From sequence record AP019521.1: 64,000 nt of DNA; one strand, given 5' to 3'. Within the stretch, counting starts at the first letter, position 1; each line of letters opens with the position of its first letter. The notes beneath the pieces were generated by a model. It did no database searches. It saw only the letters and a list, made by a program, of their open reading frames with translations, and was not told where the DNA came from. Origin of the DNA: Escherichia phage KIT01. This document shows positions 39,889-40,344 of the stretch, in pieces. The position numbers and the translations under genes are program-made.

Positions 39889-40344
39889 TTATTTTAGGTC
39901 TTCAGCCCAGTCGAGCTTCAAGGGTTCTTTATATTCTCTGTCTAAAACAACAGGAATCTGGACATCTCCACTAAAGGTAAGGGGTCCCACATTATAAGAC
40001 AGGGTGATATGAGGGGTGTAATCATCAAAATCGTGCGTAGCACCTAAGGTACGAGCATACTGATGGCGGCATTTAAGATACTCTGAATTGAGAACCAAAA
40101 CCAGGACAGGAGAATCACCGTGTTTCCATACTTCAAGATGTCCTGACGAAGCAACTTCAAAACTTCCGGATGCAACGGTGTATGGAACGTTGACTCTTGA
40201 ATAGCAGATTGTAGAATGGAATTTTTCACGAGGAACTGGATTAGGAACCTTTAAAGTGCGCTGAAGGTTTTCCAGCGCATCTAAAGTTAATTCAGAGAAT
40301 TTTGCAGCAACGTATAGACCTTGAGCAAAATCTTCGGTTTTCAT
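39889..40344 (-). CDS. 57B: 2H phosphoesterase gp57B = Acb1 (anti-CBASS cyclic-oligonucleotide nuclease)
   Basis: 151 aa; two H-x-T/S motifs (HSTICYS, HITLSYN); position next to 57A as in T4. Confidence 0.75.

Follow-up and report, generated by a model that had tools for sequence, protein, structure and literature searches.

Hobbs et al. used activity-guided fractionation to identify gene 57B of phage T4 as Acb1, and compared a Δacb1 lysate with wild type for cyclic-oligonucleotide nuclease activity (Hobbs et al., 2022; PMC9117128). Acb1 activity was shown for the T4 enzyme and for nine other orthologues (PMC9117128). Structures of the enzyme from Erwinia phage FBB1 revealed a 2H fold with an HxT/HxT catalytic tetrad formed by H44, T46, H113 and T115 (PMC9117128). 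The same study names Y12, W74, F107 and W147 as stacking residues, E141 as the contact to adenine N6, and residues 145-152, in FBB1 numbering, as a C-terminal lid (PMC9117128).

For T4, acb1 takes on conditional importance specifically when the host expresses CBASS (HIDEN-SEQ preprint). An intact acb1 sensitizes Tevenvirinae phages to Panoptes; both type I and type II Panoptes restrict phages Bas35-37, and Bas43, with an acb1 nonsense mutation, escapes (PMC13577387). T4-like phages also carry PeSL elements, composite promoter-terminator elements with the T4/PST-type consensus TTTACW-N17-TAYWAT, which have been proposed to mediate modular gene shuffling (PMC4122927).

Here we describe the 57B locus of Escherichia phage KIT01 in a window of 64,000 nucleotides (64 kb) of its sequence record (AP019521.1). 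A preliminary description of this DNA had assigned an Acb1-type 2H phosphoesterase to one open reading frame. The gene, its neighbors and the functional elements discussed below are listed in Table 1.

Table 1. Features of the 57B (acb1) locus of phage KIT01, with positions counted from the first letter of the window.
Feature	Position	Strand	Details
Gene 2	42016-42852	minus	
Gene 3, tail completion protein	41343-42095 (as program-made ORF; ends at 41343)	minus	250 aa
Gene 1, dNMP kinase	40582-41343	minus	Pfam DNMK, E 4.6e-90; co-oriented block upstream of 57B
57A, tail-fibre chaperone	40344-40589	minus	Pfam GP57, E 1.8e-28
57B / acb1 coding sequence	39889-40344	minus	151 aa; ATG at 40344, stop 39889-39891, stop included
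First catalytic HxT motif, H43-S44-T45	40210-40218	minus	codons CAT TCT ACA; T4 H44/T46
Second catalytic HxT motif, H112-I113-T114	40003-40011	minus	codons CAT ATC ACC; T4 H113/T115
C-terminal lid, residues 144-151	39892-39915	minus	LDWAEDLK, including stacking W146; from the lid in PMC9117128 and alignment
Early-promoter-like element with hairpin	39846-39876	minus	GTTTACA-N16-TACTAT; just 3' of the 57B stop, 5' of internal-protein gene 1
Internal-protein gene 1	39586-39810	minus	74 aa from M5 of the program-made ORF; N-terminus MKTYQEFITE/A
Internal-protein gene 2, Ip9-like	39312-39584	minus	90 aa; N-terminus MKSYQEFIAE/S
Second PeSL-like early promoter/hairpin cassette	39278-39309	minus	between internal-protein gene 2 and trna.4
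trna.4	39058-39243	minus	
trna.3	38651-39058	minus	
trna.2	38360-38650	minus	
tRNA-Met (cat)	37837-37913	minus	
tRNA-Arg (tct)	37757-37831	minus	
Six cassettes	16313-16343, 20594-20624, 24514-24544, 35990-36020, 39278-39309, 39846-39876	minus	

Family Assignment of the 57B Protein

The 57B reading frame is present in the program-made ORF list with 151 codons and the coordinates first described, and its translation contains both of the motifs that had been quoted, HSTICYS and HITLSYN. The protein starts one residue later than T4 Acb1, and its functional residues therefore stand at the T4 position minus one. Antisense ORFs on the plus strand within 57B (e.g., 40088-40204 and 40302-40616) were without support and were disregarded.

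A Pfam search matched the protein to PF23474, "Anti-CBASS protein Acb1", with an E-value of 8.4e-59 and a score of 197.9 bits, above the curated cut-off of 27. The match covers protein residues 8-149 and positions 1-144 of the 144 in the profile, and is thus full-length as well as above threshold. NCBIfam had no model for the protein, with 0 matches at E-values up to 10. The best match among solved structures was Acb1 of Erwinia phage FBB1 (PDB 7T26 and 7T27), with an E-value of 1.6e-58. Aligned with T4 57B (NP_049750.1, from NC_000866), the protein showed 85% identity over 151 of 151 residues without a gap (E 6e-100).

The distribution of the gene was surveyed by tblastn against 50,697 phage records, 1,470 of which contained it. 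The product of Escherichia phage MX01 is 100% identical and that of JS10 98.7% identical in this search, and the translation of IME08 57B is 99% identical. These are Dhakavirus phages, as are QL01, WG01 and LHE83, which also carry 57B. Among 77 relatives found in a collection of 5.8 billion proteins, 76 carried PF23474, and the single relative without it (P0075) is 99 residues long and covers 24% of the query. Several of the relative clusters have been named "Anti-CBASS protein Acb1" by UniRef. One T4-type Acb1 in the collection (P0012, 84% identical, from a cluster of 167 members) stands on a 3-kb contig under an Enterococcus faecalis assembly name, and most likely got into that assembly through contamination with a T-even phage.

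The earlier assignment of the gene as Acb1-type is backed by the Pfam match, the solved-structure match, the predicted fold and the synteny, and the identity of T4 57B with Acb1 by the published T4 work (PMC9117128). No feature of the sequence speaks against this. We conclude that KIT01 57B is almost certainly a Dhakavirus Acb1, an anti-CBASS nuclease orthologous to T4 57B, and that by analogy with the T4 and FBB1 enzymes it is probably active. The Acb1 call is correct but ordinary, the gene being an intact copy of a characterized T4-type enzyme. It is also already known, in that an identical protein has been deposited, a Pfam model and crystal structures are available, and the T4 orthologue has been characterized both genetically and biochemically.

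Conservation of Catalytic and Ligand-Contacting Residues

The paired H-x-T/S motifs on which the first assignment had been built are present, and can be read from the translation as H43-S-T45 and H112-I-T114. They are the only two H-x-T/S occurrences in the 57B protein. At least two such occurrences were found in 19% of shuffles of the same residues, so that the pair by itself carries no significance; a stricter, hydrophobic-flanked pair (H-h-T/S-h) was found in 0.3% of shuffles. Because H-x-T/S pairs are this common in shuffled sequences, the case for Acb1 identity rests on full-length homology and not on the motif pair.

Careful alignment, proposed at the outset as the way to detect a loss of the dyads, was carried out and the dyads hold. 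In 28 homologues, with identities down to 26%, H43, G9 and the stretch P111-H112-I113-T114-L115 are invariant, and Y11 and T45 are each at least 90% conserved. Residues H43, T45, H112 and T114 align with H44, T46, H113 and T115 of both T4 and FBB1 Acb1. All nine residues named in the structural study are conserved (T4 Y12, H44, T46, W74, F107, H113, T115, E141 and W147; PMC9117128), with the stacking aromatics present in the 57B protein as Y11, W73, F106 and W146 and the adenine-contacting glutamate as E140. A single conservative substitution, E148 in place of D, separates the lid from that of T4.

Compared with T4 Acb1 (152 aa), the KIT01 protein (151 aa) has the same tetrad, the same stacking aromatics and the same adenine-reading glutamate, and differs by 23 substitutions, which are concentrated near the N-terminus and in two loops, 56-58 and 75-80. 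One of them is F42, located beside catalytic H43; the residue at this position is I in T4 and L in FBB1. FBB1 Acb1 is more distant, at about 65% identity in a four-sequence alignment; it keeps the HxT/HxT tetrad, shows F and Y in place of W73 and F106, which KIT01 shares with T4, and has one residue inserted in the 75-80 loop.

The 23 substitutions relative to T4, including F42, could modulate rate or substrate range. A more far-reaching reading is that the Dhakavirus Acb1 differs functionally from T4 Acb1, in its substrate range or in avoiding Panoptes, and that the internal-protein cassette is an exchangeable anti-defence module. Such a difference could arise from the same substitutions, among them F42 and the rebuilt 75-80 loop near stacking W73, and we consider it improbable. 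If true, the enzyme might, for instance, handle cA3 or 2'-5'-linked signals better, or evade the decoy nucleotides of Panoptes.

Predicted Fold and the RNA Ligase Label

An AlphaFold2 model of the 57B protein, built on the homologue alignment, reached a mean pLDDT of 89.3 and a pTM of 0.82. Model confidence was low only at residues 1-5 and 148-151, and the low values at 148-151 are consistent with a flexible lid. Using Foldseek against the PDB, the top match was 7T26 (TM 0.87/0.95, rmsd 0.9 Å) and the second 7T27, with superpositions on the two entries ranging from 0.9 to 1.5 Å in rmsd and up to 0.95 in TM. The third-ranked match was the Acb1-type phosphodiesterase of Burkholderia phage BCSR5. 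LigT of E. coli and further 2H enzymes came after it, with a TM of about 0.5 and an rmsd of about 7 Å, versus a TM of 0.87-0.95 and an rmsd of 0.9 Å for Acb1.

These fold comparisons bear on a second reading, in which 57B would be an unspecialized 2H enzyme of the LigT type that works in RNA or tRNA repair, as a 2'-5' RNA ligase or as a 2',3'-cyclic phosphodiesterase. The RefSeq label "RNA ligase" on 57B of T4, IME08, JS10 and RB69 and the same description of phrog_755 speak for it, as do the 2H superfamily fold shared with E. coli LigT (Foldseek E 9e-5) and the position of 57B near a tRNA cluster. However, the Pfam family 2_5_RNA_ligase2 (PF13563) gave only a partial match (E 0.062), whose 13.8 bits fall below the cut-off of 27, where Acb1 scored 198 bits, and the T4 orthologue was found by activity-guided fractionation as a cyclic-oligonucleotide nuclease (PMC9117128). 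The sub-threshold PF13563 score and the poor superposition on LigT led us to reject the RNA-ligase reading, which we hold to be very improbable. The 2H fold, two HxT/S motifs and metal independence are common to Acb1 and to LigT and other 2H enzymes (5LDI, the poxvirus cGAMP PDE 9BKQ, and coronavirus and rotavirus 2',5'-PDEs), yet the latter are distant, with 9-19% identity, TM values of 0.33-0.59, a sub-threshold Pfam score and other substrates.

The "RNA ligase" label appears to be an annotation inherited from superfamily resemblance, and not a tested function. Orthologues of 57B are called "RNA ligase" in RefSeq (NC_000866, NC_014260, NC_012741 and NC_004928) and in PHROG 755, and "hypothetical protein" in GenBank. 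Set against Pfam and the literature, both of which give Acb1, these labels are a propagating misannotation. The value of the KIT01 assignment is mainly one of annotation, since the "RNA ligase" and "hypothetical protein" labels on most deposited orthologues need replacing.

Proposed Mechanism and Expected Effects on Infection

For the enzyme identified here as Acb1, we infer activity, substrate range and in vivo effect from the T4 and FBB1 enzymes. The 57B protein would act as a small, metal-independent 2H phosphoesterase, whose U-shaped pocket is expected to capture 3'-5'-linked cyclic di- and trinucleotides with at least one adenosine; 3'3'-cGAMP, cUA, cAAA and cAAG are candidate substrates. 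In the pocket, Y11, W73, F106 and W146 would stack on the bases and E140 would read adenine N6, while the C-terminal lid would close over the ligand. The H43/T45/H112/T114 tetrad would then drive, by acid-base catalysis, the attack of an adenosine 2'-OH on the 3'-5' bond, and the signal would be linearized via a 2',3'-cyclic phosphate intermediate. Removal of the second messenger would leave CBASS effectors inactive, and the infected cell would be expected to survive until the phage cycle is complete.

KIT01 is expected to resist CBASS signaling that uses adenosine-containing messengers, which is relevant to host-range prediction and phage therapy. It may at the same time be vulnerable to guard systems of the Panoptes type, which sense the loss of cyclic nucleotides, and a trade-off between CBASS and Panoptes like that of other Tevenvirinae is to be expected. 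An Acb1-family enzyme that mainly targets non-CBASS cyclic nucleotides (e.g., the cA3 of type III CRISPR), or that is a liability triggering Panoptes, is the least probable reading of all: Acb1 does degrade cA3 in vitro, and intact-acb1 Bas35-37 are restricted where acb1-nonsense Bas43 escapes (PMC13577387), but these observations extend the anti-CBASS reading and do not replace it, and the conditional importance of T4 acb1 is specific to the CBASS-expressing host (HIDEN-SEQ preprint).

Gene Order and the 57A Side

The order of genes at the locus, 2-3-1-57A-57B-IP-IP-trna.4/.3/.2-tRNAs (IP, internal protein), is that of T4 and IME08. The placement of 57B beside 57A, as in T4, had been recognized from the start, and the GP57 match now establishes 57A as the direct 5' neighbor. 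In T4 as in KIT01, 57B lies directly after 57A and before internal-protein genes that bear a capsid-targeting peptide (CTS). The TAA stop of 57A overlaps the ATG of 57B as TAATG, the junction reading GAATAATGAAAACC, whereas the overlap is 4 nt in the T4 annotation. This arrangement suggests that translation of 57B is coupled to that of 57A.

Transcription signals were sought around the two genes. The search for sigma-70-like promoters between 38000 and 43500 returned 17 matches, compared with 19 ± 4.6 in shuffles, and none can be assigned to 57B. No late TATAAATA and no MotA box was found close upstream of 57A/57B.

The surrounding 4.6 kb of DNA is 93-98% identical to LHE83, PSD9, QL01, WG01, MX01 and IME08, which places KIT01 among the Dhakavirus coliphages of the JS98/IME08/QL01 group. 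When window positions 38300-42900 were compared with QL01, IME540, WG01 and PSD9, the matched stretch was about 1.7-2.8 kb longer than the 4.6-kb query; homing or intron-like endonuclease genes are annotated in this stretch in QL01 and IME540, and LHE83 is colinear with the window. The gene 3 equivalent of LHE83 is annotated with 591 bp (about 196 aa). Because this annotation is shorter than the ORF in Table 1, KIT01 gene 3 probably starts at a Met inside this ORF, and the part before it is probably untranslated.

An Rfam search of 35000-44000 returned the two tRNAs and nothing else. KIT01 has two tRNA genes at the site (Arg and Met), IME08 three (Arg, Asn and Met) and T4 eight; KIT01 either lacks tRNA-Asn or has it in a diverged form.

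Neighboring Internal-Protein Genes

Both internal-protein genes lie 3' of 57B, and with 57A as its 5' neighbor the gene is not flanked by them as had been described. The first matches phrog_8765, "internal virion protein", with an E-value of 9.8e-27 and a match starting from ORF residue 5, and LHE83 annotates a 225-bp CDS at the same site. The second matches phrog_7673, "internal head protein", with an E-value of 7.7e-56, and its IME08 orthologue is annotated as Ip9. The N-termini of both align with T4 IPI over a CTS of about 10 residues, MKTYQEF-I/L-x-E, with a putative prohead-protease site at its end (slash in Table 1).

T4 has one internal-protein gene downstream of 57B (ipI), and KIT01 has two unrelated ones. 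The aligned internal proteins are 23-24% identical, and their seven invariant columns fall almost all in the N-terminal peptide. Outside the targeting sequence, alignment showed neither KIT01 protein to be homologous to IPI; the two belong to different PHROG families. An identification of the neighbors as IPI homologues, which would have made the locus an anti-restriction island, was rejected on the 23-24% identity and the separate PHROG families. Because the similarity is mostly limited to the targeting peptide, the anti-restriction role of IPI is not transferable to the KIT01 internal proteins.

In IME08, a third CTS-bearing ORF lies directly after 57B at 5824-6033 (69 aa, MKTYNEFLTEA...). 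It is unannotated there, and is absent from KIT01 at 39823-39888. The copy number of the internal-protein array thus varies among close Dhakavirus relatives, and the difference between IME08 and KIT01 marks the block beside acb1 as a variable, cassette-bounded region. The suggestion of an anti-defence neighborhood stands in part: the region is indeed plastic, its internal-protein block varying with respect to IME08, whereas the anti-defence role is an analogy to T4 ipI.

Further along the minus strand, a 202-aa ORF at 36080-36688 has a CTS-like start (MKTYNEFLNES...) and a middle rich in Pro, Ala and Lys, and is probably another internal head protein. A TATAAATA resembling a T4 late promoter stands in front of it, at about 36717-36724.

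PeSL-Like Promoter-Hairpin Cassettes

The early-promoter-like element that follows 57B matches the T4/PST-type PeSL consensus (PMC4122927). Embedded in it is a hairpin at 39843-39868 with a perfectly paired stem of 10 bp (-15.4 kcal/mol, z -4.8), and the upstream transcript probably ends there. The near-identical cassette before trna.4 has a hairpin of -13.3 kcal/mol (z -2.6). A search for GTTTACA-N16-19-TACTATAG gave six matches in the window, always on the minus strand, and 0 in 100 shuffles. Each of the six near-identical cassettes takes the form GTTTACA-N16/17-TACTATAG(A/C)CCTATCA, and a common leader, a Shine-Dalgarno sequence (GGAG) and an ATG come after it. In sequence they resemble the PeSL elements of T4-like phages, and two of the six bracket the internal-protein gene pair beside acb1.
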